Assembly: GCA_964495805.1 (NCBI GenBank)
Contig: CAZBWV010000038.1
Span: forward strand, 14,676-78,675
Length of the DNA: 64,000 bases
Source of the DNA: an uncultured Calditrichaceae bacterium
GTDB taxonomy: Bacteria > Calditrichota > Calditrichia > RBG-13-44-9
Direction of reading: 5' to 3'
Within the stretch, counting starts at the first letter, position 1; every line of letters begins with the position of its first letter. Position numbers and translations under genes: made by a program. The notes under the pieces were generated by a model. The model saw nothing but the letters and a program-made list of their open reading frames with translations, made no database searches and was not told where the DNA came from. Below are positions 33,789 to 51,270 of the stretch, piece after piece.

Positions 33789-34514
33789 ATGAATTCACAA
33801 AGATCCACAGATGAAAAACAAAAAATTATTCTGTTAGTAGAGGATGAGGTGGGGATTGCTCAGACCATTTCCGTACAGCTTCAGTTAGTGGGTTACCGGG
33901 TGTACCACGTTCTGGACGGACATTCGGCTTTGAATTCCCCTTATTTAACCAGTTGCGATGTGATTATTCTGGATTGGATGCTTCCGGATAGTGAAGGTCC
34001 GGAACTGATTCCACAACTTCGTCGCCACACCATGGCACCTATCCTGATCCTCACGGCTCGCTCCGAAATTGTGGATAAACTCACTGGCTTTGAATCCGGC
34101 GCAGACGATTACCTGACCAAACCATTTGAAATGATGGAACTGATTGCCCGCATCAAAGCGCTGATTCGGCGAAAAGAAATGCATCGGCTTGCTGGCAACG
34201 ATTCTCAGAACATTATTGAATACGGCGACATTTCATTTAATCCGGAGACCCGTCAGGTGCGTGTGCGAGGCAATCCCATCAAACTTACTCCCACGGAATT
34301 CCGGTTGCTGGAAATTTTAATTCAATCCCCCGGCCGGGTTTTTTCCCGCGATGAATTGATTGAGCTGGTGCTGGGCTACGAATACGAGGGATACGGCCGC
34401 ACACTGGATTCCCATATCGCCCGACTGCGGGCAAAAATTGAAAACGATCCCGGTTCACCCCAATACATTAAAACCATTTTCGGAGTCGGTTACAAGTTGG
34501 GGGATTCGGAATGA
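33789..34514 (+). CDS. OmpR/PhoB-family response regulator
   Basis: LLVEDE, ILDWMLP, GADDYLTKPF, LTPTEFRLL, TIFGVGY. Confidence 0.95.
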   Translation: MNSQRSTDEKQKIILLVEDEVGIAQTISVQLQLVGYRVYHVLDGHSALNSPYLTSCDVIILDWMLPDSEGPELIPQLRRHTMAPILILTARSEIVDKLTGFESGADDYLTKPFEMMELIARIKALIRRKEMHRLAGNDSQNIIEYGDISFNPETRQVRVRGNPIKLTPTEFRLLEILIQSPGRVFSRDELIELVLGYEYEGYGRTLDSHIARLRAKIENDPGSPQYIKTIFGVGYKLGDSE

Positions 34515-35923
34515 TTATTCGCTCCTTCTACACTAAAGTTATCCTGACACTGAGTGGCGTTTTCCTTACTCTGTTCTTGGTGCAAGGATTATCGATCTCA
34601 TTGATCTTTCGCGGAACAGTGGTAGATGTATTAAAACATGCCGAAGAAGGACGTTTTATCAGCATATTAAACGAAATCAATCGCATCGAATTTCGTACGC
34701 ATTCCCGTAAGAAGATTCAGGAGTTCATTCACCATCTGTATCTGGAGGGTCAGATTGATGTGTACGATTCCACGGGCGTCTGGAGCATCGGCAACCAGCT
34801 ATTTTTTCCGCCGGAACCCACTCTCTCCGGGGCAATTGATGCCGCCAACCAGCAATTCACCGGATTTTCCACGGTGTATTACTCTACCCTTCCTCATCCG
34901 GTTTTTCCGGCCATTCGAGTGACCTGGCGCTCACAGAAAAAACCCGTATTCTGGCAAGCCATTCTGGTACTGGCTGTCTCCGGTTTAATTACCCTATTAG
35001 TTACCTTTGCTGTGGGATACAAGCTTTCTTCTTCTCTGAATTTGCGGTTGATTCAACTGGAAAAAGGGGTAGCGCAGGTTGCCCGGGGAAACTTTCAGGT
35101 GGAACTGGAACTGCCCGGCAACGACGAAATCGCCGAATTGGGACGAAATTTCAACCGGATGGCCCGGCAAATCCGTGACCTGATCGATCAGTTAGAGGAA
35201 AGCAACGAAGCTCGCCAGCGACTGATTGCCCATGCTTCCCACGAAATCAAATCGCCGCTCACCTCCATCCAGGGGTTTGTGGATATTATCGAATACATGC
35301 AGCTGATTCCCGAGCAAGGGGAGCAATCCCGCACGGTACCTACCCGGGAGCTTCTGAACACCGTACGGAAGGATATCAAACGGGTTATTAAAATTGCCGA
35401 CGACTTAATTCAACTGGCCCGTTTGCAGGAAGCCAATTTCCATATCGAAAAAAAAGAGGTTTCGTTACGATCGGTACTGAAGGAGGAACACCGTTACTTT
35501 GTGCACAAAGCCAGAGAACACAACGCCACTGCTCTGCTCAAATTCTCCGGGCGTACACGTTATCGGATCGAAACGGACCCCATCCGGCTGGCGCAAATTC
35601 TGGACAATCTGTGGAGTAACGCTTTGAAGTACGGAGATCTCTCTCACCCCATTGTCACACGGGTGCACGAAGAAAACGGCTGGATTTCCATTACCGTAAG
35701 CAATTACCTGATCTATCCCTTAGAGGTGTCTCCTCACCAGTTGTTCGAACCATTTTACCGCGATCCGAAATTCTCCGAACATGTGAAGGGCTCGGGATTA
35801 GGGCTGGCTATTGTCCAGGAACTGGTAAACCGAATGGGGGGAAGAATTAAAAGTTGGACGGAAGAAAAGCAATTATTTATAGCTATTTACTTTCCCAAGC
35901 AGGTTAGCATAGAAAACGGATAA
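34511..35923 (+). CDS. HAMP-domain sensor histidine kinase
   Basis: Two TMs, HAMP (DEIAELGRNFNRMA), H-box ASHEIKSPLT, N-box NALKY, GSGLGLAI; ATGA overlap with the regulator. Confidence 0.93.
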   Translation: MIIRSFYTKVILTLSGVFLTLFLVQGLSISLIFRGTVVDVLKHAEEGRFISILNEINRIEFRTHSRKKIQEFIHHLYLEGQIDVYDSTGVWSIGNQLFFPPEPTLSGAIDAANQQFTGFSTVYYSTLPHPVFPAIRVTWRSQKKPVFWQAILVLAVSGLITLLVTFAVGYKLSSSLNLRLIQLEKGVAQVARGNFQVELELPGNDEIAELGRNFNRMARQIRDLIDQLEESNEARQRLIAHASHEIKSPLTSIQGFVDIIEYMQLIPEQGEQSRTVPTRELLNTVRKDIKRVIKIADDLIQLARLQEANFHIEKKEVSLRSVLKEEHRYFVHKAREHNATALLKFSGRTRYRIETDPIRLAQILDNLWSNALKYGDLSHPIVTRVHEENGWISITVSNYLIYPLEVSPHQLFEPFYRDPKFSEHVKGSGLGLAIVQELVNRMGGRIKSWTEEKQLFIAIYFPKQVSIENG

Positions 35924-36569: not shown

Positions 36570-38765
36570 TTAAAATTTTACACCAAGATGGAAATAAGTT
36601 AGAAAATTATGCACTTCACTACCGGCAACTGTAATCTCCAACGGTCCCAGAATAGTATCCATCCCATAGGTAAATCCATATCCCACAATAAACCCCTTAT
36701 CCAGAACGTTATCCACCCAACTATCGAATACATTTCCCGCATTGACCGCTCCGATCAGGAAGCTTTTTGGAGAAAGCGCATATTGAATATAAAATTTACC
36801 AGCATGCACATTGGAACCAAATAACTCTTTCAGATTCAATCCGTAAAATGAAAATAAAGAACGATTACGCACCGTTTGAAGCACCGGTACATCAATACCT
36901 CCCAGGAAGAACGCACCGTTGATGGGGACCTCTCCTCTGCGAACAGAACCAGACACCAGGTGAGCGCCCAAAACCACACCGGGATACACCTCTTTTGCCC
37001 CACTGGCGTTGAAAAAGACTCGATCGAAAGAAATCTGTTCTCCCATTTTTCCCATGTAATTAATGCCATGATCATAACGAGCATAAATGGAATAACCATT
37101 TCGGGGGAAGTAATAGCGGTCGTATTTATCCATCCAGATGACGGTCATTAAAGTAAGAATTTTTTCCTCAAATTTAGGAAGTCCCACCTGTCCGATGTTG
37201 GGAGAAGCTCGAACGTATTCGGCCCGGAGACCCATATCCAGATCGAATATTCGAGCAAACAGGGAACCAAATCGCACCTCTCCGGCATAGTTCCGAAAGC
37301 CGTATTGCGCAAGCACTTCTTTCTGGTAGTATAGATCCAGATTATCCTCAGCGTAATTCAGCCTTAAATTCAATCCCACTCCGGGCAAAATTCCCATCAA
37401 AGTGTAATATTGAGCATCGATTTCAAGTCGATTTCCCAGTAAAAAATCCAGATTAATGTAAGAGCTTTCTCGCATGAGATTCCGAATTAGAAAATTGATG
37501 ATAAAAGAGGTGTTTCGCACATTATCGTACCGAAATCCCAGGCGGAATTTATTAAGTTTTTTTTCAATAATATTCAGCACCAGGATGTTTTTTCCATTTT
37601 CCCGGTGGATACGATAATCCACCCGGTTAAAAAATTGAAGGCTGTAAATATTCTCCACTGCTTGCTGGATGTCATCCACCGAATATCGGCCTGGTAGGCG
37701 CAAATTTAATTCTGAGATGATGGTTTTCCAGGAGACCTGTCGGAGTCCTTTAATCTGCACTGCATCCAGGTCCAGGGAATCGGGAATTGACACCACAGGA
37801 TGTTTGGGCAAAGGTTGATATTGCCGAAGTGAATCTGCCAGGGCTTTCAATTGCGGCATCACTTTTCGCGCAGCCCGTTCCCCCCGATCCACAATATCCT
37901 GAACATTGTCAAATGACAAAGGCGACAAACCGGAGATATCTGGCCGTATCACAATATCGGCCAGCTTCAATTGCGCCTCGTTCGTAGCAACCGAACTGTA
38001 CATGTTGCTCTGGTTTAACACATTGAGCAGGGACTGCAATTCTTCTTTTTTAAACAAAACGGCAGAGACATCCACCGCAATAATGATATCGGGATGATAT
38101 TTCTCAATCATATCAATTACCGGGATGTTGCGTACCCGATCCCCGTCAATCAGGTAACGGCCGTCAATTTCCATGGGGACAAAGACGGAGGGAATGGACA
38201 TGCTAGCCCGGATGGCATAAGGTAAAAAGCCATGATCCAAGCGCACCCCGTTTCCATTCTGCATATCGGTTGCAAGTGCCAGGAAAGGAACTGGCAATTT
38301 GGAGAAGTCCGAAACATCGTGCACAGGTATGGTAAAACGCGAAAGCACCTCCAGTACAAACTGACCGGCAATGATCCCGCTGGGTAAATAGATCTTGGCT
38401 TTGCGCATGGGAAGTTTCAACGCATATCGGCCATCCCAGTTTTTCTGATCCATACGCAATTTACGCCGACCGACAACATCGTATAAAATATCGTTCCAGT
38501 CCGTGCCCACAGCCACCTGTTCCAGCTCATCAATGGAAAGTCCGGCCGCGTACAAACCACCTACCACACTGCCCATGCTGGTTCCTGCGATGTAATCAAT
38601 GGGAATATTCAATTCTTCCAGTACTTTAATGACCCCAATATGAGCAAAGCCTTTGGCTCCCCCACCGCTCAAAACCAGTCCCACCCTGGGTCGATCCCCC
38701 CTGGCGAAGACGATTAGCGGAACCAAGAATATCAGCACCATGTATTTGTAGAAAGAGAACTTCAT
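36570..38765 (-). CDS. Patatin-POTRA-beta-barrel protein (PlpD-like, type Vd)
   Basis: LSGGGAKGFAHIG, GTSMG, IDGD; central POTRA-like segment; barrel ending in GVKF. Start set at MKFSFY. Confidence 0.88.
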   Translation of the reverse strand: MKFSFYKYMVLIFLVPLIVFARGDRPRVGLVLSGGGAKGFAHIGVIKVLEELNIPIDYIAGTSMGSVVGGLYAAGLSIDELEQVAVGTDWNDILYDVVGRRKLRMDQKNWDGRYALKLPMRKAKIYLPSGIIAGQFVLEVLSRFTIPVHDVSDFSKLPVPFLALATDMQNGNGVRLDHGFLPYAIRASMSIPSVFVPMEIDGRYLIDGDRVRNIPVIDMIEKYHPDIIIAVDVSAVLFKKEELQSLLNVLNQSNMYSSVATNEAQLKLADIVIRPDISGLSPLSFDNVQDIVDRGERAARKVMPQLKALADSLRQYQPLPKHPVVSIPDSLDLDAVQIKGLRQVSWKTIISELNLRLPGRYSVDDIQQAVENIYSLQFFNRVDYRIHRENGKNILVLNIIEKKLNKFRLGFRYDNVRNTSFIINFLIRNLMRESSYINLDFLLGNRLEIDAQYYTLMGILPGVGLNLRLNYAEDNLDLYYQKEVLAQYGFRNYAGEVRFGSLFARIFDLDMGLRAEYVRASPNIGQVGLPKFEEKILTLMTVIWMDKYDRYYFPRNGYSIYARYDHGINYMGKMGEQISFDRVFFNASGAKEVYPGVVLGAHLVSGSVRRGEVPINGAFFLGGIDVPVLQTVRNRSLFSFYGLNLKELFGSNVHAGKFYIQYALSPKSFLIGAVNAGNVFDSWVDNVLDKGFIVGYGFTYGMDTILGPLEITVAGSEVHNFLTYFHLGVKF

Positions 38766-38843
38766 CCCATTACCCTCATTTTTTCCCAATATTCCAAGGA
38801 ATTAAACATAATTCGAATTGGCATCCTCCGTTTTTCCGCGCAT

Positions 38844-40100
38844 TTAATGTCGGTCTAAATAGCTCAGTTTGCGATGAACATCCAGGAGCTGTTCCTGAAT
38901 GTATTGATAATACACCTGAGCGAACTCTTTAAATCGGGCATCATTCGTTTCGCTGAGGACTTTATTTTTCCGGGATAAAATCTTCTGGTAACGTTGCCGG
39001 AAATAAGTCAGATTGGCGCGAATTTCGGTGAATTCCGGATGAGAAATCATCTTTTTAACTTTCCGGGTTTTCTGCTTAATCAGCGGCCATTCCATGACGA
39101 ACAGCTTAAATTGGGGCTCATACACCTCATTTTCCTGCCGGACCGAAATGGTGCGCCATAAAGCCCCGTGATGAACTGGCAGCCAATGATACTGCATCAG
39201 TGTATTTCGCAGCACTTCGTCCTGATAAATTTTACGAATATCTTCGATGGGATAATTGTTGGCTCGATCGAACAGGTTCACAAATTCGTTAGCGGGTACA
39301 GAAAGATTGAATAGCTGTTTCAGTTTGGTGGTTTTCACCGATTGCGGTTTCCAGAATCCCGCGGCAGCCAGCGCGTTGTGTACCAGATGGCTACAATTAT
39401 CGGAATAACCGCTCCAATTATATTTTGCTTCTCCGGTGGCATATTCCCGATTTACCCGATTCAGATACTCCACCACTTTACCCAGCACATCCCGGGTCAC
39501 CGGTACGCTGACGCTAAAAATGGTACGTCCAAAATTCAGGGCATAATCCGTACCGATGGACTGGCGTGCCAGATATTCCAGCACATTCATGGTGTCCGGT
39601 TTACTGGTTAGATATTGCTGATGAACTTCAATTCCCTGAAAAATTCCCATCTCCATTGCCTGTTTTATGGTATGTTCAAACCGATCCATGGTAAGTGCCG
39701 TCGTCTCGGGTAAATTTCCGTAAAAAAAGAAAAAGCGAGTGGGAACACCAATCCAGTTCACATTTTTAAACAATTTATCGACACTCACCCCCACTCCTGT
39801 GTCCGGGTTTTTTAAATCTGCCGTAGAATCGCACAGGGCGATGGTGGGGTACGGTGCATCCTTTACCCATCGGGCACCCTTGAGATAGACCACTGCGTGT
39901 CCTGCTCCCCCACCCGCGGGGGCTCCCCTGGGACGAATCTGGCTCACTGCGCTGACCTCCACATAATAGGGATACAGCTCGTCGTACACCACCGGTAAAC
40001 CCCGACTTTTAATGACCACATTTTCGTTGGAGGAACAGCCCAATAGCCCCAGAAGAACAGTTAAAATGATAAAGAATTGCATCCGTCGAAAATTTTTCAT
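38844..40100 (-). CDS. Hypothetical lipoprotein with a putative permuted papain-like His/Cys dyad
   Basis: Lipobox LLGC; GHAVVYL followed much later by YNWSGYSDNCS. Confidence 0.55.
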   Translation of the reverse strand: MKNFRRMQFFIILTVLLGLLGCSSNENVVIKSRGLPVVYDELYPYYVEVSAVSQIRPRGAPAGGGAGHAVVYLKGARWVKDAPYPTIALCDSTADLKNPDTGVGVSVDKLFKNVNWIGVPTRFFFFYGNLPETTALTMDRFEHTIKQAMEMGIFQGIEVHQQYLTSKPDTMNVLEYLARQSIGTDYALNFGRTIFSVSVPVTRDVLGKVVEYLNRVNREYATGEAKYNWSGYSDNCSHLVHNALAAAGFWKPQSVKTTKLKQLFNLSVPANEFVNLFDRANNYPIEDIRKIYQDEVLRNTLMQYHWLPVHHGALWRTISVRQENEVYEPQFKLFVMEWPLIKQKTRKVKKMISHPEFTEIRANLTYFRQRYQKILSRKNKVLSETNDARFKEFAQVYYQYIQEQLLDVHRKLSYLDRH

Positions 40101-40870
40101 GGGTTTTTTACCCCCGATTGATTTTTTAATCCATGCTGGTAAAGTGTGGAAATGGTGACGATTTTCAGACCTTTTTGGGTCAGATAGGGAAGGATTTGTT
40201 CCAGCGTACGGATAGTTCGCCTGCCGCGATCGCCACCATCATGCAGAACTATGATATCTCCCGGCCGGGTCGTCCAATCGATGTAATGGGAGGCCAGAAA
40301 GGTAAACGGAATCTGCGCATCGGCAGGATAAACTGAGCCCAGTACCAGACGATAACCCCGCGGGTCGTTCGCCAGATAATTGGCCATCTCTTCTGTGTAA
40401 AACGCAGAGCCGGGGCGCAACCAGCGCACCGGTGCAAACTGCCGCAACACACTGTCCGCCCGGTTAAATTCCTGCACAAACTTCTGGTAAGTCAGTTTAG
40501 CCGTTGGTTCATCGCGGGTCATGTGGTTGCCTATTTCGTGCCCTTCGGCCAGAATTCGCTGAATAATGGCTTCATTGCCCGGAACCCGTCCGGTAATCAC
40601 AAAAAATGTGGCATGGGCGTGATACTTACGAAGGGTGTTTAAAATCAGTGGAGTGGTGACCGAATCCGGTACATCATCAAAAGTAAGCGCCACCAATGGT
40701 TCGTTAGTAGGAATGTAAAAAATTGCCTCGGGATAATTGGTCGCCACCTGTTCCACCACCAGATGGTGAATAGGGGCGCAACTCGCCAGCATCAGCAAAC
40801 CTATGAACAGAATTCCGCACAGGCGATATCCCCTCTCTCCGGATCGATTCATTTTTCTCCAACCCCGCAT
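40097..40870 (-). CDS. Polysaccharide deacetylase (NodB/CE4), probable lipoprotein
   Basis: ALTFDD, HEIGNHM, LRPG, IIVLHD; LASC lipobox. Confidence 0.88.
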   Translation of the reverse strand: MRGWRKMNRSGERGYRLCGILFIGLLMLASCAPIHHLVVEQVATNYPEAIFYIPTNEPLVALTFDDVPDSVTTPLILNTLRKYHAHATFFVITGRVPGNEAIIQRILAEGHEIGNHMTRDEPTAKLTYQKFVQEFNRADSVLRQFAPVRWLRPGSAFYTEEMANYLANDPRGYRLVLGSVYPADAQIPFTFLASHYIDWTTRPGDIIVLHDGGDRGRRTIRTLEQILPYLTQKGLKIVTISTLYQHGLKNQSGVKNP

Positions 40871-42513
40871 TAATACTCCAGTTTTCGTTCTTTTATGTAT
40901 TGAAGCAACTGGCTCATACTGAGTTGACGACTGGCCGGGCCACTGCGAATGAAAAACATCTCCTGATCCTTATTTTTCAGAAATACCGGTCTGGGAGAGG
41001 GAAAACACTGTACCACAAAAACGTCCTTCCCCTGCACTTCACGGATGGCAAACTGGATGTATTCTGAAAATTCCAGCCCGATATGTTGATTGAATATGCT
41101 TCCGAAGTGCCTTAAGTATTTATCGTGATTGGGGAATTTGTCCAGTTCAATTCCCAGCGGAGTTCCATCATCATCTACACCTACAAACAAAAACCCGCCA
41201 CCGGAGTTCATAAACGCGGTAATGGTTTTCAGACTGGCCAGTTCAATCTCCTTGCCTGGCTTGTCCGCTTTCAGATTCCAGCGCAGGGTGGATTTGAATT
41301 CCACCCGTTCGCTTTCCCCGTTGCGAATTAAATCAAGTAGTTCTTCCTCACTCATCCGGGAAAGCTCTCGTGTAATGCTGCGGGCTCGCTCCCGTTTAAC
41401 CATCCGAACCGTTAATAAAAGGGTCCCCAGCCAGAGAACCACCAGCACCCCAATAATGGGAAAATACGGACGAGAAGAATATCCCTGTAACAGGGCAGAT
41501 TGAGGCACCACCCAGGCCAATCCCATAGGATGTTCTTTTTCAAAACGACGTAAATAAGCCCACCATATCAGCCCGGCTTGCTCGAACCGAAACGGATGCT
41601 CAGGTTGTCCCGAACTTTTCCACGCTTCCAGTACCTGTCTGGCCACAGAATCGGCAGGTATATGGCCACTCCCGAGAGTTTGCGCCTGTTTTTCTGCTAC
41701 CGGCTTATTGGACACCTGAGCCAGATTTAAAATGATTTGTTGCCCGGAAAAAATGAACACCCGGCTGGAGGCATCCAATTTCAGTGAATCTACCAGCGAA
41801 ACAAGATGCCGGTACAACACGCTAAGTGCGGCAACTCGTTGGGTATGGGCTCGCTTCCAGGCCAGCGAAATGGTCATGCCCGTTTGCCCATCGGGGAAAA
41901 GTTGATATGGTTCGGTAATGGAAAATTCCTGTTCCCCTATTTCCAGCGCATTCCGGAACCAGTTCCGGTGATGGGGACGGAAATGAACATCCGCTTTACG
42001 TTTACCAAGCAGGTTTCCCTGCGCATTCAGTTCCCACCATTCCTGCTGGCCGGTGGAATCATTTCCCACGGTGACCAGTGCCCGCCAGCCTGCCTGCCCA
42101 CGAAAAAGGGCAAAACTCCACCCCCGCGTATCAGACAGAATCAAAGAGTAAATCTGAGCATTATTGCTTATCAGGGGGAAGAGCTGATCTTTTAGTAAAT
42201 CCGGTCGGGAGGTGTTCAGTACGCCATTTTTATCCCACTGCCGGATTGTAACAAGATGTTTCAAAATAGGACTGAAAAAATTAGAAATCCGTTCGGTGCT
42301 TTGCTCGGAAAGCTGGCGAATCACCTGCCGGGAGATTTCACCGGTCTGCCGCTGGCGACCCACCAGCAACAGAATAACAACTCCCACAATCGCTACCAGA
42401 AAGAAAACGTTTAATAAAAATAGTGAACGAATGGTTCTGTTTTGGAAAAGGTATTTTCCGGACGGGTTCGGCCGACTGGAATTATTCATTGGTTTAGTTT
42501 CGTTGCTTGACAT
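40870..42513 (-). CDS. Membrane-anchored Cache-domain sensor fused to a C-terminal Schlafen/AlbA_2 domain
   Basis: TM1, periplasmic Cache-like region (RPHHRNWF...TEPYQLF...GMTIS), TM2, then GESERVEFKSTL, KTITAFMNSGGGFLFVGVDDDG, FFIRSGPASR. Confidence 0.8.
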   Translation of the reverse strand: MSSNETKPMNNSSRPNPSGKYLFQNRTIRSLFLLNVFFLVAIVGVVILLLVGRQRQTGEISRQVIRQLSEQSTERISNFFSPILKHLVTIRQWDKNGVLNTSRPDLLKDQLFPLISNNAQIYSLILSDTRGWSFALFRGQAGWRALVTVGNDSTGQQEWWELNAQGNLLGKRKADVHFRPHHRNWFRNALEIGEQEFSITEPYQLFPDGQTGMTISLAWKRAHTQRVAALSVLYRHLVSLVDSLKLDASSRVFIFSGQQIILNLAQVSNKPVAEKQAQTLGSGHIPADSVARQVLEAWKSSGQPEHPFRFEQAGLIWWAYLRRFEKEHPMGLAWVVPQSALLQGYSSRPYFPIIGVLVVLWLGTLLLTVRMVKRERARSITRELSRMSEEELLDLIRNGESERVEFKSTLRWNLKADKPGKEIELASLKTITAFMNSGGGFLFVGVDDDGTPLGIELDKFPNHDKYLRHFGSIFNQHIGLEFSEYIQFAIREVQGKDVFVVQCFPSPRPVFLKNKDQEMFFIRSGPASRQLSMSQLLQYIKERKLEY

Positions 42514-42611
42514 GTAAATATCAGGAACTCAGTTATGAAGGTTACTTTAGTGCAATACCCATGGATTGCAGAAAAATTTAATTGGAGTCAAAAGATTGGG
42601 ATATTCATCCG

Positions 42612-43370
42612 TTAAAAGAAAAGGGTGAAGCCCACTTCCGGTCCGGCATGGCGAACATCGTACTTAAAATACTCCAACCCGGTTCCACTCTCGTACTGAA
42701 CATCCCAGATGCGATAACCACCTAAAAGGGCAAAATTGGACAGGCGCAATCCCACTCCGGCAGAAATGTTCCAGGAGAATTTCGAACCCAGACCAAAACC
42801 GCCCATATCCGCACGGGCAAAAATTAACACCGGTTTAAAAATTAAAAAGCGTGTCCGGGCACCCACAAAAGGGTCAAACCAACCTTTATGCTTTTCGACC
42901 TCTGAGACGCCTCCCTCACGGATGACAGTTTTTATTTTGAAATACCGCCCACCACCAATGATGTCCAGATAGGGAAGAATGCTATAACCGGCAGCTCCTT
43001 CCCATAGGGAAATGTAAGAGTTTAATTCATCCAGGCTATCTTTATCGAAACTCTGGATAAAAATTCCCTCTAACAAAAAAACCAGTTTTTCTGTCTTCGC
43101 CTCCACATGCCCGTTCAGCGCCCAGCCACCACCACGCATTAAATCTTTAAAAAAAACATCCGCCTCAAAGCTTTTCTCCCCTACAGTGACGGTTCCATTC
43201 TGAGAAGGCAACCAGGAGAACAGGGTAAACTGATATTGCCAATTGTTCTGGTTATAATCGTACGCCACATATTGCGCCTGACCTGCTGAGGGCCAGTACC
43301 ATAGTACCATCATGACCAACAAAAAGGCGAACACCCGTCTATGCTGCGAAAATGGTTGATTCTGTTTCAT
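42612..43370 (-). CDS. Outer-membrane beta-barrel, unknown function
   Basis: Signal peptide, WFDPFVGAR, RADMGGFG, GGYRIWDVQY, C-terminal Phe. Confidence 0.7.
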   Translation of the reverse strand: MKQNQPFSQHRRVFAFLLVMMVLWYWPSAGQAQYVAYDYNQNNWQYQFTLFSWLPSQNGTVTVGEKSFEADVFFKDLMRGGGWALNGHVEAKTEKLVFLLEGIFIQSFDKDSLDELNSYISLWEGAAGYSILPYLDIIGGGRYFKIKTVIREGGVSEVEKHKGWFDPFVGARTRFLIFKPVLIFARADMGGFGLGSKFSWNISAGVGLRLSNFALLGGYRIWDVQYESGTGLEYFKYDVRHAGPEVGFTLFF

Positions 43371-43422
43371 TCGAATTCCCCTTATTCTCATCTCCCTTCT
43401 TAAAACCAATTCATACAACTAA

Positions 43423-44334
43423 CTAAAAGAAAGACAACCCGGCCAAAAACAGGACATGGAAATAATCGTAACCAGGAATGCTATAATTTTTAAAGGTGAA
43501 TGTGGTCCCACCGCCACCAAATGCCGCCGCTTGTTCAGTTATTTGGATGTGTAACAAAAAACGAAGTTGCAAAGCGAACACATCTTCTTCCGGATCGCGT
43601 TCGGTAAGTTCGGGATTGTTGTACACATGCAGATAACCCAGGTCAGCGCTCATCTGGTACTCTTCGGTCAGTGGCATCATGTACCCGTAATGAAAACTGA
43701 AGATGGTGGACTGCTCCGTCCAGAAGTCAAAACTGGTGCGTCCGATGGCCAGTTCGGAATAGAACTGATTGGCCAGAAAGCGCAGCCCTGCATTGATATT
43801 GGCATAGCTGGTTCCGTAAACGATCGCCTGCAGCTTCCCGTTATCGGCAAGGTTTATTAATCCGATGGGAATACCGTGTTGTTTTCGGGCGATGTTAATC
43901 AACCCGATCTGCACCCCGGTTTGCACGGAATCGGCGGTATTAATCAGTCCTACCTGTGTTCCCGACAGATTGGCAGCATGGTTAAATCCGCCCATCTGCC
44001 AGCCACTAAAGCGACCATCGGTATTGTTGTACAATCCCGCAATTCGCAATCCGGAAGCATCTCCCTTTACTTTTGCAACCAGTCCCACCAGCTGGAATCC
44101 CCGAAAATCGTGGTTAATCACACTCACCGCTCCGCTCATGTCGAATGCCCGGACGCTTCCCACATTGCCGTAAATCAGCGAAATATTGGTACTGGTCTGT
44201 ACATCTTTCGAACCATTGGTGCTCAAGGGATAAAACAAAGAGAGATTCAGCGCACGTGTGGAACCATCCTCCTGAGCCAGGATCGAATCCAGAGTGAATA
44301 CCGTGAGCAACAAAAACATTAACCAGATTTTCAT
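43423..44334 (-). CDS. Exported GxQxGxxN-repeat protein (LA_2272-like) with beta-rich C-terminus
   Basis: Repeats GFQLVGL, GWQMGGFN, GTQVGLIN, GVQIGLIN, GIPIGLIN; C-terminal Phe. Confidence 0.7.
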   Translation of the reverse strand: MKIWLMFLLLTVFTLDSILAQEDGSTRALNLSLFYPLSTNGSKDVQTSTNISLIYGNVGSVRAFDMSGAVSVINHDFRGFQLVGLVAKVKGDASGLRIAGLYNNTDGRFSGWQMGGFNHAANLSGTQVGLINTADSVQTGVQIGLINIARKQHGIPIGLINLADNGKLQAIVYGTSYANINAGLRFLANQFYSELAIGRTSFDFWTEQSTIFSFHYGYMMPLTEEYQMSADLGYLHVYNNPELTERDPEEDVFALQLRFLLHIQITEQAAAFGGGGTTFTFKNYSIPGYDYFHVLFLAGLSFF

Positions 44335-44768: not shown

Positions 44769-45401
44769 ATGAAAAGGTGGGCTATCGTCTTTTTCCTTTT
44801 ACTCCCGACAATTCTATCCGCCCAAATTTCTCTGGGAATGATGGTTGGAGCCAACATAGGCAAATTTGGGGGAGTAGAACCGCCGGATATTAGCTATACC
44901 CATCGCACCGGGTCGAATGTGGGAGTTACGGCTATTTTTCGTATAACCCGGGATGTGAGTTTGGCTTTTCAGCCGACTTATTCCCAACGTGGTTCCAACA
45001 TCGAAACCGGTGAGGATACACGCTGGGATACTCTGAAAGTGTACCAGGTTAAAATCAATTTTCTGGTGCTTCCACTATTCGTCCGAATCGATGCCGACAA
45101 CGGAATAACTTACTTTGTCAGCGGGCTGGAATTTGCTTTGCCATTGAGTGCGGAAGTAGTCTTTCAGGATCAATCATGGGACATCTCTCACAACCTCAGC
45201 AATACAGATATCCTGGCTTCCATCGGAATGGGGTTTCGTATCCCTTTCGGGCAGAAAAATCACGCCATGCTGGAAGTGCGCTACTATCAGGGACTGGTCA
45301 ACTTCAATTATTCTTCCGAAGAAGAAAAAAAACGCGTTATCTACGAAAATTTTAAAAACAGTGGTTTTCAAATCATGCTTGGAATCGAACGGGTTCTGTG
45401 A
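44769..45401 (+). CDS. Porin-family 8-stranded beta-barrel (OMP_b-brl_2-like)
   Basis: Signal peptide; YSQRG, FLVLPL, EVRYYQGL. Confidence 0.75.
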   Translation: MKRWAIVFFLLLPTILSAQISLGMMVGANIGKFGGVEPPDISYTHRTGSNVGVTAIFRITRDVSLAFQPTYSQRGSNIETGEDTRWDTLKVYQVKINFLVLPLFVRIDADNGITYFVSGLEFALPLSAEVVFQDQSWDISHNLSNTDILASIGMGFRIPFGQKNHAMLEVRYYQGLVNFNYSSEEEKKRVIYENFKNSGFQIMLGIERVL

Positions 45402-45402
45402 T

Positions 45403-46353
45403 ATGAGAAAAACCTGCCAAACCATTCTGATGTTGATGGTGGTCCTTCCGGCATTGGTAGCAGCAGGCTCACCGATTCAGAGAAATCTGCCTCTTCTGAA
45501 CAGCCACTATTTTATGCCGTTTGCCAATTTCCCCTCTCCATTTATGACCACCATCTTCAAAACCGGCATTGGCGGCGGTGTCAGCACCAATCAAATTCCA
45601 ATCTACTGGGTGGACGGCAGATTGATTGGCCAGCTGGAAGGAAAGAACACCTTTGTCAATGCAACAGTGATGGTAAAAGTCCGTGCCAAAGAATGGCTGG
45701 CAACCTGGTTCAAATACGAAGCGAACGTTCGCATCGGAAGCAATACTTCTACCCTACTGACCCATGGGGTCACATCCATCACCGGTTTCGAGTTTGGCTG
45801 GATGTACCGTTTATGGAAGAGTTCCAATAACCTGCTTTCTCTGACTCTTCAGATAAACAACACCACCGTCTCCACCATGAATTTACTGCGCTTTTTAAAC
45901 GATGTGATCACCTCACCGGACAGCATTACCACCACCCTAACCCAGAAGCGCAATCCGCTCTCCGGTGGCATGGGTTTCCGCTATGCCCACGCGTTCAATG
46001 ATTTGTGGGGAGTGGAAACTTATCTATATGGTTCCTACGGGGAATCGTTCCTCCAAGATGAAAACAACGTTTGGCAATTCAATATGGGAATTCTTGGCAG
46101 TATATATTTGAATTACCGGTATGGAATTCCCGTGGGAGGCATGCTGGGATTTACGGTGAAACGTCTTACCCTTTTTCAGAAGCAAGAGGATGACCAGACC
46201 GAATCCATTCTGGCGAAAATTGCTTACGTAGGACGTGAGGAGTATAATATGGGGCTGGAATTTTATTACGTCCGGACCGCAACTCCGCTGCTGGCACGGG
46301 ATTCCAGCATGAGATATTTAACTATTAGCTTTGTGGTTACTTATATTTTTTAA
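45403..46353 (+). CDS. Probable outer-membrane beta-barrel, unknown function
   Basis: Start set at MRKTCQ (45403); signal peptide; alternating strands; C-terminal YIF. Confidence 0.6.
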   Translation: MRKTCQTILMLMVVLPALVAAGSPIQRNLPLLNSHYFMPFANFPSPFMTTIFKTGIGGGVSTNQIPIYWVDGRLIGQLEGKNTFVNATVMVKVRAKEWLATWFKYEANVRIGSNTSTLLTHGVTSITGFEFGWMYRLWKSSNNLLSLTLQINNTTVSTMNLLRFLNDVITSPDSITTTLTQKRNPLSGGMGFRYAHAFNDLWGVETYLYGSYGESFLQDENNVWQFNMGILGSIYLNYRYGIPVGGMLGFTVKRLTLFQKQEDDQTESILAKIAYVGREEYNMGLEFYYVRTATPLLARDSSMRYLTISFVVTYIF

Positions 46354-46459
46354 TCCGGGACCCCATTTGTCCGGCAGGTTTCACGGAAGGTTTCTTGCTT
46401 CCGGCAAGGGAAAGGTTATCGGATAACATTCACAATAAATCGAAACGAACCTGTTCTCT

Positions 46460-47584
46460 ATGAAAATCCCATTTATCCTCGGAATTATTCTGGTGTTCAG
46501 TCAGATGCTGTTTTCCACCCCTCAACCGGATGATTCCACACAAGCCTTTATCTCGAAAGAGTTTTATCATTCCCATCAGACCAGCATTAAAGGTTATCCT
46601 TACATTTACTACACCCCGGAAACAGCGCTGGCGATTGGGGTTGGTGGAATTGCCACCTTTTACACCTCCCGGGAATTGATTTTACGACCTTCTAAAATTT
46701 CCCTTTCCGGTTACTATTCCACACGCAAACAATACAAAATATCCCTGACCCCCCAATTGTACATGCTAAAGAACCGGTATTTTCTGTCCGGAAACATCAA
46801 TTTTGGGGATTTTGTGGACAAGTTCTGGGGCATCGGCAGTACCTCGCCCGATATGAAAAATGTGGATTACGACTCGCGTGCATGGGGGATACTGATCAAT
46901 TTCCAGTATCCGCCGTTGCTTCAGTTCATGCCACAAAATAAAAGCGGCATTATCTACGATTACTACCACTACCTGATTCGCGATGCCCGGAACAATCCCG
47001 GCTTACATCATCCCAACCTCATCGGACGAAACGGGGGGGTGAGTTCCGGATTGGGATTCACTGTGGTGTGGGACACCCGGGATCACATTTTTTTCCCCAC
47101 CGCCGGTGGTTACTATCAGATAAAAGCCATTTACTATATGCGTTCACTGGGAAGCAGCTACGATTTTAACAGCTACGAGATCGATTTGCGAAAATATTTT
47201 GGATTTGGAGACCAGGAGGTCCTGGCAGTGCAGGTATTTGCCAGTTTTGCCGCGGGACACCCTCCGTTTTATGAGCTACCCATGCTGGGTGGCGCCAATC
47301 TGATGCGCGGTTACTACCAGGGACGTTACCGCGACCGCTATTTTATGAGCACCCAGATGGAATATCGTATCCATCTGTGGTGGCGCATCGGTGCCGTAAC
47401 ATTTCTGGCGCTGGGAGATGTGGCCCCAACAATGCAAAAATTTAATATTCGTTATGCGAAAGTATCTGGCGGCTTCGGTCTTCGTTTCCTGTTTAATCAA
47501 AAAGAAAAAGTGAATGTGCGAATGGATATTGGATTCGGGCAGGGAACCTCGGGAGTTTACTTCGGGATGGAAGAAGCGTTTTAG
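46460..47584 (+). CDS. Omp85 (BamA/TamA-family) barrel without evident POTRA domains
   Basis: YYTPETALAIG, DTRDH..FPTAG, MRGYYQGRYRD lid-lock motif, C-terminal EEAF; only 374 aa. Confidence 0.82.
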   Translation: MKIPFILGIILVFSQMLFSTPQPDDSTQAFISKEFYHSHQTSIKGYPYIYYTPETALAIGVGGIATFYTSRELILRPSKISLSGYYSTRKQYKISLTPQLYMLKNRYFLSGNINFGDFVDKFWGIGSTSPDMKNVDYDSRAWGILINFQYPPLLQFMPQNKSGIIYDYYHYLIRDARNNPGLHHPNLIGRNGGVSSGLGFTVVWDTRDHIFFPTAGGYYQIKAIYYMRSLGSSYDFNSYEIDLRKYFGFGDQEVLAVQVFASFAAGHPPFYELPMLGGANLMRGYYQGRYRDRYFMSTQMEYRIHLWWRIGAVTFLALGDVAPTMQKFNIRYAKVSGGFGLRFLFNQKEKVNVRMDIGFGQGTSGVYFGMEEAF

Positions 47585-47705
47585 TGAAACAAGAATTCGG
47601 GAACCAATATGGGATAAAAAGTCATTCGCTCAAATTCAATTACCACTCCATCCCATGCCCTTTTATTTGTAAATTGAGCATTTTAGTGAAACAGAAAGTA
47701 TTGGA

Positions 47706-48749
47706 ATGGTTCGGCTTCAATTACATAGTTGGGTATTTCTCTGGCTGATCGGATCCATTCTGCTTGGCTGGTCTGGATTGGTGTTTGGTGGTACCGATAT
47801 CGTAGTGATGAATAATGGCGACCGGTTGGTGGGAGAAATTAAAGGAATGGATCAGGGAATTCTGCATCTCGAAACCGATTACAGTAAAAAAGATTTTCAG
47901 ATTGAGTGGAAAAAAATTAAATTTATCCGGAGCTCGGCCAGTTTTGTACTGGTTCTCTCCAGTGGCCGTCGGTATGTGGGCAGTTTGCAGACGGATTTTC
48001 AGGATTCCACCCAGCTTCTAATTCGGGAAAAGCTGGGAACCTACACAGTGGATATTCACCAGGTGGTTTACATTAAACCCATCAAGGAAACGTTCAAAGA
48101 CCGCCTTAACGCAAATTTCGATTTCGGGTACTCACTCACTAAAGCAAACAAAGCCCAGCAATTGAATCTGAGCGGTACCATTGGTTATATTACACGTTCC
48201 TGGATGAGCGCCTTTAATTTCAACTCGTTAAGTAATTTTCAGGAGGGCGCTCCTCGTTCCAGTGCCACCGACGGCGACATCAACTACCGGCGCTTTCTGA
48301 CTCTGAACTGGTTCGGAATTGTGTCAGGAACTTTTCGCTCCAGCGACGAACAACAACTGGACCTGCGAACCACGTTCAATGTGGGTGGAGGTAAATATTT
48401 TGTGCAAAATAACCGACTTTATTTCATGGCGGTGGTGGGAGGTGCATTCATGATGGAAAAATTCAAAGGAGAGGAATTCCCCAGTAATCGGAGCATGGAA
48501 GGATTGTTGCAAACCGAATTTAATGCATTCGATACCGGCGACCTGGATTTCTTTGCCCAGCTTTCAGCTTACCCCAACCTCTCCGAATCCAACCGCTGGC
48601 GCCTGGTCCTGAACACCAATCTGAAGTGGAAACTCCCTTACGATTTTTATTTTAAACTCAGTTACACCCACAATTACGACAGCAAACCGCCCAACGAAGC
48701 CTCCAAAAGCGACTATTCCATTACCACTTCCGTTGGGTGGAAATTTTAA
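47706..48749 (+). CDS. DUF481-like outer-membrane protein
   Basis: D.VVMNNGDRLVGEIK N-terminal module; C-terminal YDSKPP...TSVGWKF. Confidence 0.75.
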   Translation: MVRLQLHSWVFLWLIGSILLGWSGLVFGGTDIVVMNNGDRLVGEIKGMDQGILHLETDYSKKDFQIEWKKIKFIRSSASFVLVLSSGRRYVGSLQTDFQDSTQLLIREKLGTYTVDIHQVVYIKPIKETFKDRLNANFDFGYSLTKANKAQQLNLSGTIGYITRSWMSAFNFNSLSNFQEGAPRSSATDGDINYRRFLTLNWFGIVSGTFRSSDEQQLDLRTTFNVGGGKYFVQNNRLYFMAVVGGAFMMEKFKGEEFPSNRSMEGLLQTEFNAFDTGDLDFFAQLSAYPNLSESNRWRLVLNTNLKWKLPYDFYFKLSYTHNYDSKPPNEASKSDYSITTSVGWKF

Positions 48750-48780
48750 TTGATGAAAAAGTGTTAAAAAGGTGATTCCC

Positions 48781-51270
48781 ATGAAGCAGTTCATTTTTTT
48801 ATTGATTTTTCTGGGAGGGTTGGTGGTTTCGCCGGCTCAGGAAGCAGAACCTGCTGCTCCGGCCGATCAAAAAACCACACAACCCAAAGCACCCGTCTCC
48901 ATTCCAGTAACCGAAATCACCATTCAGGCGGACCAGGTACACGGAAAACTAAACGCCATTCGGGAAGAAACCACTCTCAATCCGGAAATTCAGAAGCTCA
49001 TGGAAGAATGGCCTGCTATTCTGGATTCCCTGATCGCCAGAGAAAAGGAGCCCATATTTCAGAAGCTGGATCAACTTTCGCCGCGCAAATTGCAGGGGTT
49101 CGAACAGGAATGGAGCGTCATATTAAAACGTCTGAACCAATGGAACGATTTGCTTTTGGAGCAGATTCAGCTTCTTCAGGAAAAGAAAAAATGGTTGAAC
49201 CAGAACTACGCTCAGTGGGAAGTAACCGCTAAGGCTATCGAAGAGGAGGACATTCCCCAGAGCATCCGGGATCGGATCGCCTCCATCATGACAGAGATCG
49301 ACACCGTGCGTAACCACATTGTGGACCGACTCAATACTCTGCTTAATTTACAGAACCAGATCTCCGAACAACAGATTACAATTGGCGAACTGCTCAATGC
49401 CATCAACACCACCGAAACGGAACTTCGCACCCATCTGTTTATTCAGGACAGTCCGCCTTTGTGGGAAGCCTTCGGAGCCACAAAGGATAGTCTGAGTTTT
49501 CGGAGTAAGGAACGGGAAGCCTGGCAAAATTTCGCGGACACATTGGATGGTTTCTACCGTTCCAACCTTCAGGCTATTAAAATCCACCTGCTCCTTTTCA
49601 TGATTACTCTTTTCATAATGGTTTATTTTTACTGGAGAAATAAGCAGGAAAAACTGTTTCGGGAAGGCGAAGATGTATTAAAAGCTTCGGCTTTTTTCAT
49701 CTCCCGGCCAGTTTCTGCCGCATTACTGGTTACTCTATTCTTTTCCATCTGGCTTTACCAGAATGTTACGGATGCTATTTCGGAGCTTTTCATTATCATC
49801 CTGCTAATTCCTTTTCTCCGACTGATGACCGGAGTGGTGGTACCGGAGAGGCGAAAAGCAGTGTACCTGCTTTCCTTTCTTTACTTTCTGGTATTTGTGA
49901 ATAACAACGCTGTAAACGACGTGTTGATTCAGCGCTTGCTATTGCTGGTAATCACCCTTATTACTACCGCCCTATTTGCCTGGATTGTGTATCAGGTTCA
50001 TCCGGTTGCTCATCAGCGGGTAAAACCATGGCCTAAATTCTTATTTCGTATTCTGCCAGTGGCAATTCTTGCCCTGTTCGTAGCACTGGTCGCCAATATT
50101 ATTGGTAGTGTGGTACTGGCACACCTGATTGTAGTGGGAATTATCAAAAGTGTTATTATTGGAACCATTTTGTACGTCATTGCCCGGGTGATTGATGGAA
50201 TGGTCGTGCTTTTAATCCGCAAACGCACCATTCAGGGCCTGCAATTTGTGGACACATACGCCCATCGTATGGAACACTGGGCTGTTTTTGCGGTTCATCT
50301 GATTGCGTTTTTTGTGTGGGTTCGTGCAACTCTGAAAGCATTTCGGTTGTACGACCCGGTTTACGATTGGTTACAGATGATTCTGGAAACCCGCTGGCAA
50401 ATTGGTGCTCTAACCATCTCCGTGGCCAGCATTGTGAACTTCATTCTGATTCTTACCGTTACCTTTGTCATTGCCCGGCTCATACGCATTTTACTGGATA
50501 TTGAAGTGTTTCCCCGAATTCGTCTTCCGCGGGGAATACCCGGCGCCATCTCCATGGTGGTGCGCTATACCGTCATCGGACTGGGATTTTTCCTGGCGCT
50601 TTCTGCCATGGGAATCGATCTGGGTAAATTCGGATTGCTGGCGGGTGCCCTGGGGGTTGGTCTTGGTTTTGGCCTGCAGAATGTAATCGCCAACTTTGTC
50701 TCCGGGCTCATCCTGGTGTTCGAACGCCCCATTCAGGTGGGAGATAAAATAGAAGTGGGGAACGTGCTGGGATTGGTCAAACAAATTGGTGTACGCTCCA
50801 GCACCATTCGTACTTTCGATGGTTCGGAGGTGATTGTCCCCAATGCCGACCTTATCTCCCAACAGGTAACCAACTGGACACTCTCGGACAATCGCCAGCG
50901 GATGAAACTACCAGTTAAGGTGGCATTCGACTCGGATCCGGAGGAAGTGCTGGAGCTTCTGCTACGAATTGCCCGTGAACATCCCGGGGTGTTAAACGAC
51001 CCGGAACCCATTGCCACGTTTAATGGATTTGGGGATTATTTTCTGGATTTCACGCTGTATTACTGGGTGAGTACCAATATTCTCCAGACCAAAACGGAAG
51101 TAGCGTTGCAGGTGTACCGGGCAATTCAGACGCTTGGCATCGAAAAACCACGTCCTGAGCAAAAACTCTATTTGAAGAATTTAGAGGAACAGCAAAGCAA
51201 GCGTGCCTCTGGTAAACGGAAATCCGGGAAAGGCACTGGTTCTTCTTCCCAAAAGGAATCGGAGCCATGA
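48781..51270 (+). CDS. Large MscS-family mechanosensitive channel (MscK-like)
   Basis: Periplasmic coiled coil, many TMs, GALGVGLGFGLQNVIANFVSG, RPIQVGD, VPNADL, VTNWT. Confidence 0.93.
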   Translation: MKQFIFLLIFLGGLVVSPAQEAEPAAPADQKTTQPKAPVSIPVTEITIQADQVHGKLNAIREETTLNPEIQKLMEEWPAILDSLIAREKEPIFQKLDQLSPRKLQGFEQEWSVILKRLNQWNDLLLEQIQLLQEKKKWLNQNYAQWEVTAKAIEEEDIPQSIRDRIASIMTEIDTVRNHIVDRLNTLLNLQNQISEQQITIGELLNAINTTETELRTHLFIQDSPPLWEAFGATKDSLSFRSKEREAWQNFADTLDGFYRSNLQAIKIHLLLFMITLFIMVYFYWRNKQEKLFREGEDVLKASAFFISRPVSAALLVTLFFSIWLYQNVTDAISELFIIILLIPFLRLMTGVVVPERRKAVYLLSFLYFLVFVNNNAVNDVLIQRLLLLVITLITTALFAWIVYQVHPVAHQRVKPWPKFLFRILPVAILALFVALVANIIGSVVLAHLIVVGIIKSVIIGTILYVIARVIDGMVVLLIRKRTIQGLQFVDTYAHRMEHWAVFAVHLIAFFVWVRATLKAFRLYDPVYDWLQMILETRWQIGALTISVASIVNFILILTVTFVIARLIRILLDIEVFPRIRLPRGIPGAISMVVRYTVIGLGFFLALSAMGIDLGKFGLLAGALGVGLGFGLQNVIANFVSGLILVFERPIQVGDKIEVGNVLGLVKQIGVRSSTIRTFDGSEVIVPNADLISQQVTNWTLSDNRQRMKLPVKVAFDSDPEEVLELLLRIAREHPGVLNDPEPIATFNGFGDYFLDFTLYYWVSTNILQTKTEVALQVYRAIQTLGIEKPRPEQKLYLKNLEEQQSKRASGKRKSGKGTGSSSQKESEP

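Follow-up and report, generated by a model that had tools for sequence, protein, structure and literature searches.

The DNA analysed here is a stretch of 64,000 nucleotides from an uncultured Calditrichaceae bacterium (contig CAZBWV010000038.1, positions 14,676 to 78,675; hereafter the window). It carries a gene for a membrane receptor in which a predicted double Cache sensor is joined to a Schlafen/AlbA_2 domain. On balance, we favour the reading that this protein is a homodimeric one-component receptor in which a ligand sets the geometry of the dimer and thereby gates a Schlafen-type endonuclease, most likely one that acts on tRNA. The homodimer would sit in the inner membrane and bind a small molecule through its periplasmic double Cache (dCache) domain, and binding would move the stalk helix and alter how the second transmembrane helix (TM2) is rotated or in what register it sits. 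The movement of TM2 would be passed through a linker of fixed length to the two cytoplasmic AlbA_2 domains and would set their mutual orientation. This orientation would decide whether the two domains form the two-lobed groove required by Schlafen nucleases, where one protomer would contribute the active site (E400, E405, K407 and D448, with a divalent metal) and the other a basic patch opposite it. Once the groove had formed, RNA, most likely tRNA, would be cut, and translation would be lowered upon an external chemical cue. Of this model, we infer dimer gating, nuclease activity, tRNA as the substrate, whether the enzyme is switched on or off, and the physiological role, for which a down-shift of translation is most likely.

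The output half of the receptor was identified by profile and by structure. Pfam placed SLFN_AlbA_2 (PF04326) at residues 400–531 (model positions 1–117/118, E = 1.3e-18, 68.1 bits against a cut-off of 25.3), in agreement with the earlier note on this DNA, which had assigned the C-terminal domain to AlbA_2; the same profile matched 90/90 homologs. When residues 385–547 were modelled alone with AlphaFold2 (AF2), the mean predicted local distance difference test (pLDDT) value was 94.9. A Foldseek search with this model returned the tRNase/DNA-binding domain of SAMD9 as the best match (TM-score 0.65, probability 1.00), and the other matches at probability 1.00 included DIP2311 (3lmm), the RecG-related N-terminal domain 2kyy and SLFN5/11/12/13/14. 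The predicted output fold is the two-layer alpha+beta AlbA_2 fold, like that of the SLFN C-lobe.

The residues expected to form the active site are conserved throughout the family. The earlier note had described an E-x4-E-x-K motif (ESERVEFK) and a GG.LFVGV.D motif as intact, and both were found so, the former at residues 400–407 and the latter within GGGFLFVGVDDDG at residues 438–450. E400, E405, K407 and D448 were unchanged across 90/90 full-length homologs, and the catalytic residues stayed invariant after the addition of relatives linked to REC and cNMP-binding domains. The full invariant set of the 90-member alignment comprised G399, E400, E405, K407, S408, R411, K429, N436, G439, G440, G445, D448, G454, D464, G479, R523, G525 and L531. 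D448 was aligned to the second Asp of the SLFN11 GVDD motif and equals D252 of SLFN11 only if a 28-residue tag offset is assumed in chain 7zel_A. The TAFMN segment, which contains the invariant N436, is the counterpart of the SAFAN Schlafen box. The mean pairwise identity was 55% in the output half versus 23% in the sensor half. In CbCash, E17, D22 and K24, the equivalents of the receptor's Ex4(E/D)xK residues, are essential and act with Mg2+ (PMC13462974); the E15A/D20A mutant of RorSlfn5 serves as an inactive control, and the catalytic motif of SLFN11 is Ex4ExK (PMC13056530). Every characterised bearer of the motif is a metal-dependent tRNase, namely CbCash (PMC13462974), RorSlfn5 (PMC13056530), and RzAgo and SLFN11 (10.64898/2026.05.29.728809). 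Since every characterised relative targets tRNA, tRNA is, by analogy, the most likely substrate of the receptor.

The gene encodes 547 residues when read from its first ATG. An alternative in-frame ATG (Met9, at 42489) was chosen by the public gene call, which gives a protein of 539 residues; no obvious Shine-Dalgarno sequence precedes either Met1 or Met9 (42489–42513, minus strand). Hydropathy analysis revealed two hydrophobic segments, at residues ~30–52 (TM1) and ~349–371 (TM2), and in the AF2 model a helix spanning residues 26–95 passes through TM1 into the sensor stalk. The earlier note's order of elements (TM-Cache-TM-Schlafen) was thus reproduced by hydropathy, Pfam, the family profile, AF2 and Foldseek. 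No HisKA, HATPase or REC domain was detected in the protein by Pfam, and AlbA_2 was the sole finding among Pfam, NCBIfam and PADLOC, the latter two giving no match to the receptor. The receptor is of the one-component type: input and output share one polypeptide, which has no phosphotransfer domains and no cognate kinase nearby. A frameshift or fusion artefact was ruled out because the architecture recurs widely, in ~90 full-length homologs of 500–556 residues and at no fewer than 545 loci. The features of the receptor and of its nearest neighbours are listed in Table 1.

Table 1. Features of the receptor gene and of the adjoining gene cluster, in window coordinates.
Feature	Position	Strand	Remarks
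Whole receptor gene, TM-dCache-TM-AlbA_2 (Schlafen)	40870..42513	-	547 aa; stop codon 40870-40872
TM1	42358..42426	-	aa ~30-52; 29-aa cytoplasmic tail before TM1; hydropathy
Predicted periplasmic double Cache (dCache_1-type) sensor	41470..42357	-	aa 53-348
TM2	41401..41469	-	aa ~349-371; hydropathy and AF2 model
Juxtamembrane linker	41350..41400	-	aa 372-388, ~17 residues
Single-lobe Schlafen/AlbA_2 domain	40873..41349	-	aa 389-547; Pfam, AF2, Foldseek
Catalytic motif E400-S-E-R-V-E405-F-K407, Ex4(E/D)xK form	41293..41316	-	invariant in 90/90
G439-G440...G445-V-D-D448, glycine/hydrophobic core and third acidic residue	41170..41199	-	after TAFMN
Upstream co-directional genes, 268-aa and 303-aa Pfam-less proteins	42612..44334	-	conserved cluster
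Polysaccharide deacetylase (NodB-type), downstream co-directional	40097..40870	-	conserved cluster
418-aa Pfam-less protein	38844-40100	-	conserved cluster
Patatin-POTRA-Omp85 (PlpD-like lipase)	36570-38789	-	conserved cluster

The sensor half was more divergent, and its identity was established through the family. The receptor itself had no match to Pfam dCache_1 (PF02743) at E ≤ 1, so the Cache call of the earlier note was not based on a profile match; it nevertheless proved correct and can be refined to a double Cache. Among the 90 full-length homologs, 35 matched dCache_1 (E ≤ 0.01; best 2.1e-8) and 20 matched MCP-like_PDC_1. When the family profile was searched against the Protein Data Bank (PDB), it retrieved dCache ligand-binding domains (7w0w, Mlp24, PctA/B/C and Mlp37) with E values of 4e-8 to 1e-5. 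These alignments span the DPRxRxW[YF] motif, whose version in the window protein is HHRNWF (R183, W185). This search superseded a single-sequence phmmer search of the sensor against the PDB, which gave chance FOXO matches and PctC at E = 0.11.

The AF2 model of the whole receptor, built from the 90-sequence alignment (pLDDT 89.9), contained the stalk helix (residues 26–95), two alpha/beta modules and TM2. The membrane-distal module covers residues ~121–233 and the membrane-proximal one residues ~251–337. As judged from hydropathy and the model, the Cache region fills the whole span between the TM helices and consists of a long helix at its N-terminus followed by two PAS-like modules. All of the top 50 Foldseek matches listed for the receptor model against the PDB were double-Cache receptor structures at probability 1.00, among them chemoreceptors, histidine kinases, cyclases and two integrative chemoreceptor models; their TM-scores were ~0.5–0.67, normalised to targets that are ligand-binding domains. 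The predicted sensor is a double Cache of the dCache_1 type, a membership that is assigned by family transitivity together with the family profile and the AF2 model.

The amino-acid-binding residues of PctA (R126, W128, Y144 and D173) correspond in the family-profile register to R183, W185, Y203 and S231 of the receptor, and the family keeps Arg, Trp, Tyr and, at position 231, Asp in 30, 82, 52 and 28 of 90 members, respectively. An assignment of the Cache domain as an amino-acid sensor was not adopted, the equivalent of PctA D173 being Ser231. Given that the PctA motif is only partly kept, the ligand of the predicted sensor probably differs between lineages.

Signal transduction from the sensor to the nuclease domain would have to pass through the segment after TM2. 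No HAMP or other transducer domain lies between TM2 and AlbA_2 in the receptor. The earlier note had placed a short helix here; a short piece is indeed present, and it is more precisely a linker of constrained length followed by AlbA_2's own N-terminal helix. The distance from the first charged residue past TM2 to the catalytic Glu was 30–31 residues in 59/90 homologs (range 23–38), and the mean identity of the linker in the homolog alignment was 18%. A linker whose length is fixed while its sequence is free matches what a mechanical connection would require.

Inputs of the dCache, REC, cNMP-binding, PAS and HAMP types usually act as dimers. Prokaryotic SLFN domains with a single lobe can restore the bilobal nuclease only by dimerizing, and in the horseshoe of RzAgo the active site comes from one protomer and the basic patch from the other (10.64898/2026.05.29.728809). 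Cash and SLFN11 are likewise governed by their assembly state (PMC13462974). With inputs that are usually dimeric and with the RzAgo and SLFN11 precedent, we therefore infer that the receptor self-associates into a bilobal groove.

Several observations weigh against a dimer-gated nuclease. The characterised prokaryotic Schlafens (pSlfns) form higher-order assemblies, namely the Cash filament and the RzAgo tetramer, which a membrane-tethered dimer may be unable to form. Moreover, Ex4(E/D)xK is kept in nearly all prokaryotic AlbA_2 domains, many of which are annotated as regulators (PMC13056530), and conservation alone is therefore no proof of RNase activity in vivo. The SAMD9 AlbA_2 domain, which gave the best structural match, comes from a crystal that also contained DNA (7ksp). 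Lastly, the census of defence genes reported below covers 14 loci and the PADLOC 2023 models, and the clustering of neighbouring genes covers 75 loci.

The receptor belongs to a large family. A word-indexed search gave the ~90 full-length homologs (27–85% identity), and an exhaustive phmmer search with the AlbA_2 module alone against 1.84 billion cluster representatives (50% identity) gave 5877 matches at E ≤ 1e-3 and 446 at E ≤ 1e-30. Among the best 150 of these matches, most were proteins of 480–560 residues that carry the module C-terminally. When one genome was scanned for each GTDB species, no fewer than 545 loci came to light, so the fusion is a widespread architecture and not a one-off. 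Cultured carriers include Desulfosarcina alkanivorans, Marichromatium, Thiobaca, Thiorhodococcus, Thiocapsa, Rhabdochromatium, Pontiella sulfatireligans and Desulfogranum. Metagenome-assembled genomes extend the distribution to Desulfobacterota, Gammaproteobacteria, Planctomycetota, Verrucomicrobiota/Kiritimatiellota, Krumholzibacteriota, Acidobacteriota and others. The origin of the window in Calditrichota is borne out by its SHMT, which shares 81–88% identity with the SHMTs of named metagenome-assembled Calditrichia genomes.

The same module is also connected to other inputs. Relatives at 45–57% identity are fused to REC and cNMP-binding domains, and further fusion partners are PAS, HAMP and GNAT. 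A total of 249 modules were classified, comprising 168 of the TM-sensor-TM type, 48 partial or single-TM proteins, 28 with REC, 1 with a cNMP-binding domain and 4 others. In a neighbour-joining tree, 23/28 REC-linked modules fell in one clade. One REC-AlbA_2 gene shares 4 nt with the end of a gene for a hybrid histidine kinase, and GGDEF and STAS genes come after it. Among the loci of the genome scan, 5/10 of the REC type had a histidine kinase no more than 2 genes away, a lower bound as the kinase detector was crude, versus 0/69 of the TM-sensor type. This wiring to REC, cNMP-binding, PAS and HAMP domains, the invariance of the catalytic residues and the lack, in the loci sampled, of an association with defence genes or mobile elements support the earlier note's proposal of a one-component receptor with a predicted nucleic-acid-directed output. 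It is conceivable, although we hold this more tentatively than the mechanism of the receptor itself, that the AlbA_2 clade represents a previously unrecognised output class of mainstream bacterial signalling: a regulated endoribonuclease, used by Cache one-component receptors, response regulators and cNMP/PAS sensors, that would tune translation or RNA stability to environmental chemicals.

Three proteins from metagenomes carry the module in mid-protein: P0154 (REC-AlbA_2-REC-SpoIIE), P0185 (REC-AlbA_2-Pkinase) and P0219 (REC-AlbA_2-REC-HD_5). Each looks like REC-AlbA_2 with another complete signalling protein attached, a hint of shared pathways.

Three other explanations of the receptor were weighed against a gated nuclease. 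It could be a membrane-tethered regulator in the manner of ToxR or CadC, whose AlbA_2 domain would bind DNA or RNA but leave it uncut and would control the envelope operon next to the gene. Relatives are named 'putative DNA binding domain-containing protein' or 'putative transcriptional regulator' in databases, although these names are automatic annotations; the top structural match is a DNA-bound AlbA_2 domain, proteins composed of REC and an output domain are most often DNA-binding, and synteny with the envelope genes is conserved in Calditrichota. Beyond the window's lineage, on the other hand, the neighbourhoods are not conserved, and a local regulator usually accompanies its targets. The receptor has no helix-turn-helix (HTH) domain, and the invariance of all four acidic and basic catalytic residues in every homolog would be unexpected for pure binding, so we regard this explanation as unlikely. 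We consider it very unlikely that AlbA_2 is neither a nuclease nor a DNA binder and instead serves as a protein-interaction or oligomerisation module, or senses nucleic acids inside the cell and so modulates other enzymes of signalling. Such a role would suit P0185, P0154 and P0219, in which AlbA_2 follows REC, precedes Ser/Thr kinase, PP2C or HD-GYP-type modules and is not the terminal output. These three long proteins, however, resemble REC-AlbA_2 fused to a second complete signalling protein; in the great majority (168 TM-sensor and 28 REC proteins of the 249), AlbA_2 is the sole cytoplasmic domain and C-terminal, and its catalytic residues are invariant.

The remaining explanation is an anti-phage (abortive-infection) role, in which Cache would detect some sign of infection in the periplasm, whereupon tRNA would be depleted by the Schlafen domain. 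All experimentally studied prokaryotic Schlafens are defence effectors with variable sensors (PMC13056530, PMC13462974, 10.64898/2026.05.29.728809), and a conserved nuclease with a variable sensor, as seen here, is the pattern reported for pSlfn5. Of prokaryotic Schlafen genes as a whole, 69.6% have a defence gene no more than 10 kb away (PMC13056530), which agrees with the earlier note's remark that they are usually linked to conflict systems. By comparison, PADLOC matches among the 141 neighbours of 14 diverse loci were sparse, no family being matched by more than 2 proteins. Type I-B cas genes were found near 1/14 loci, and most other matches were generic (TatD, PLD, ABC ATPase). This cas locus and that of Thioflavicoccus mobilis, where the receptor gene stands beside a RES-Xre toxin-antitoxin pair and an N6-methyltransferase, are among the few defence-like contexts seen. 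Clustering of 718 neighbouring open reading frames from 75 loci revealed no conserved defence neighbours, nor any partner family present in more than 11/75 loci. The receptor protein has no PADLOC match, the neighbours in the window gave only a generic patatin match to defence models, and the locus in the window is an envelope operon whose synteny extends to orthologs of 50% identity. Neither the viral contigs of IMG/VR nor phage records yielded relatives of the clade, and plasmids carried only other, distant AlbA_2 subfamilies (identity ≤38%). The enrichment near defence genes or on mobile elements is thus absent from this family in the limited sample, and its sister architectures are response regulators in histidine-kinase operons. 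We therefore judge an anti-phage role to be quite unlikely.

Sensor-fused Schlafen nucleases are known from pSlfn5 (RorSlfn5, Slfn with an Ig-like domain), Cash (Slfn with Csx15, activated by cA4) and SLFN-pAgo (RzAgo), all of which target tRNA and have their activity set by the oligomeric state (PMC13056530, PMC13462974, 10.64898/2026.05.29.728809). The receptor resembles them in its single-lobe AlbA_2 domain, the Ex4(E/D)xK motif and the third acidic residue, as well as in the fusion of nuclease and sensor in one polypeptide, with the nuclease conserved and the sensor variable. It differs in that its nuclease domain is C-terminal and membrane-tethered and its sensor is extracytoplasmic and of the chemoreceptor dCache type. 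Its sister proteins have REC, cNMP-binding, PAS and HAMP inputs, and no association with defence islands, viruses or phages was found in the loci sampled. The receptor is thus a sensor-fused prokaryotic Schlafen, but one that is embedded in the membrane and coupled to a chemoreceptor-type sensor, that belongs to one- and two-component signalling and that is apparently non-immune. The survey of pSlfns reports 55 architectures, for which its main text names the classes GHKL-type 'HisKinase' ATPase, HTH, DUF5929, Ig-like, DUF262 and TBP-like (PMC13056530). According to the same survey, 30.4% of prokaryotic Schlafen genes are without defence neighbours and 'may have non-immune functions' (PMC13056530). 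The main texts of the pSlfn5, Cash and RzAgo papers, to which this comparison is confined, make no mention of Cache, transmembrane or response-regulator fusions.

Compared with dCache_1 receptors (PctA/B/C, Mlp24/Mlp37, TlpQ, Tlp3, and dCache histidine kinases and diguanylate cyclases), the receptor shares the TM-dCache-TM topology, the long stalk helix, the two PAS-like modules and the RxW[YF] motif. It differs from them in lacking HAMP and in its incomplete amino-acid-binding motif. The outputs recorded in the census of Cache proteins are methyl-accepting chemotaxis proteins, histidine kinases, GGDEF/EAL/HD, PP2C, cyclases, serine/threonine kinases, transcription factors and ion channels, with no nuclease (PMC4822843); the models of this census were built solely from proteins with known output domains (PMC4822843). 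With SLFN11/12/13/14 and the AlbA_2 tRNase domain of SAMD9/9L, the receptor shares the fold (Foldseek probability 1.00), the catalytic triad and Lys, the SAFAN-like box and the GGxxxxGVxD core, at a sequence identity of 14–24%. The eukaryotic proteins differ in having two lobes per chain and helicase or other domains, and they are soluble and regulated by phosphorylation or by partners. ToxR and CadC also combine sensing and output in one membrane protein without phosphotransfer; theirs is an N-terminal winged-helix DNA-binding domain with a single TM helix, whereas the receptor has a C-terminal nuclease-type domain and two TM helices. Searchable literature yielded nothing relevant on AlbA_2 or Schlafen domains linked to Cache, to response regulators or to signal transduction. 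The parts, dCache sensors and Schlafen nucleases, are known, and their combination and its signalling setting are not described in that literature; the supplementary table of the pSlfn survey may list the fusion without comment.

Ire1 is a eukaryotic sensor of the endoplasmic reticulum that senses on the lumenal side, spans the membrane and carries a cytosolic RNase, which self-association activates. The likeness to the receptor is one of logic only and implies no homology, as the kinase-KEN RNase fold and the sensor of Ire1 are unrelated and the protein is single-pass. If our proposal for the clade is true, it would be the bacterial counterpart, in logic, of Ire1 and would reveal a non-immune role for Schlafen nucleases. 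An extracellular chemical cue would be converted directly into RNA cleavage, a new, fast, post-transcriptional output for chemoreceptor-type sensors, and Schlafen nucleases, viewed as immune effectors from bacteria to humans, would also serve ordinary signalling. The clade (446 clusters) thereby offers a concrete hypothesis for part of the ~30% of prokaryotic Schlafens that are without defence neighbours and unexplained (PMC13056530). The presence of Cache, REC and cNMP inputs on one output further provides handles for switching a Schlafen nuclease, such as phosphorylation mimics and cyclic nucleotides, and for studying gating by dimer geometry.

In the window, the receptor gene is the third of a six-gene co-directional cluster (36570–44334, minus strand) that encodes, in order, the 303-aa and 268-aa proteins, the receptor, the polysaccharide deacetylase, the 418-aa protein and Patatin-POTRA-Omp85. 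The order is kept with receptor orthologs of 58% and 50% identity (three Calditrichota-like genomes; L001 6202–14114 and L003 3895–11815), and the cluster looks envelope- or lipid-related. The first ATG of the deacetylase gene overlaps the receptor stop codon (TAATG), and a second ATG follows 21 nt on, with GGAG 5 nt upstream. Scans for promoters and terminators around the cluster gave counts at the level of chance (16 versus 13.7 and 12 versus 10.4, respectively) and were set aside. An OmpR-type response regulator and a HAMP-HisKA-HATPase kinase (33789–35923, plus strand) adjoin the Patatin-Omp85 gene, with the same placement in L001. On the other side, a run of envelope and outer-membrane genes (44769–52574, plus strand) encodes OMP_b-brl_2, a 330-aa protein, Omp85 (374 aa), DUF481, an 832-aa MscS-like channel and MipA, and is partly syntenic in L001. 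A second Cache receptor of the window (54927–57074, minus strand) has the architecture dCache_1-HAMP-SpoIIE, with a PP2C phosphatase as a conventional output; it was considered as a close paralog of the sensor studied here and was rejected on comparison.

Outside this lineage, other neighbours were observed. In Thioflavicoccus mobilis, the RES-Xre pair and the N6-adenine methyltransferase-like gene lie just upstream of the receptor gene (L006 5260–6429, 3279–4997), and a 418-aa neighbour with the same length as the window's 418-aa gene was rejected as a conserved partner, the two not being homologous. One further distant homolog locus had no notable neighbours. Mla-like ABC/MCE genes were located upstream of the Cache-AlbA_2 gene in 7–11 other loci. 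In two Desulfobacterales loci (L004 2405–8533 and L005 1742–8608), the Cache-AlbA_2 gene directly follows genes for a TAXI-TRAP transporter (an NMT1-type binding protein and a DctM permease) and a universal stress protein.

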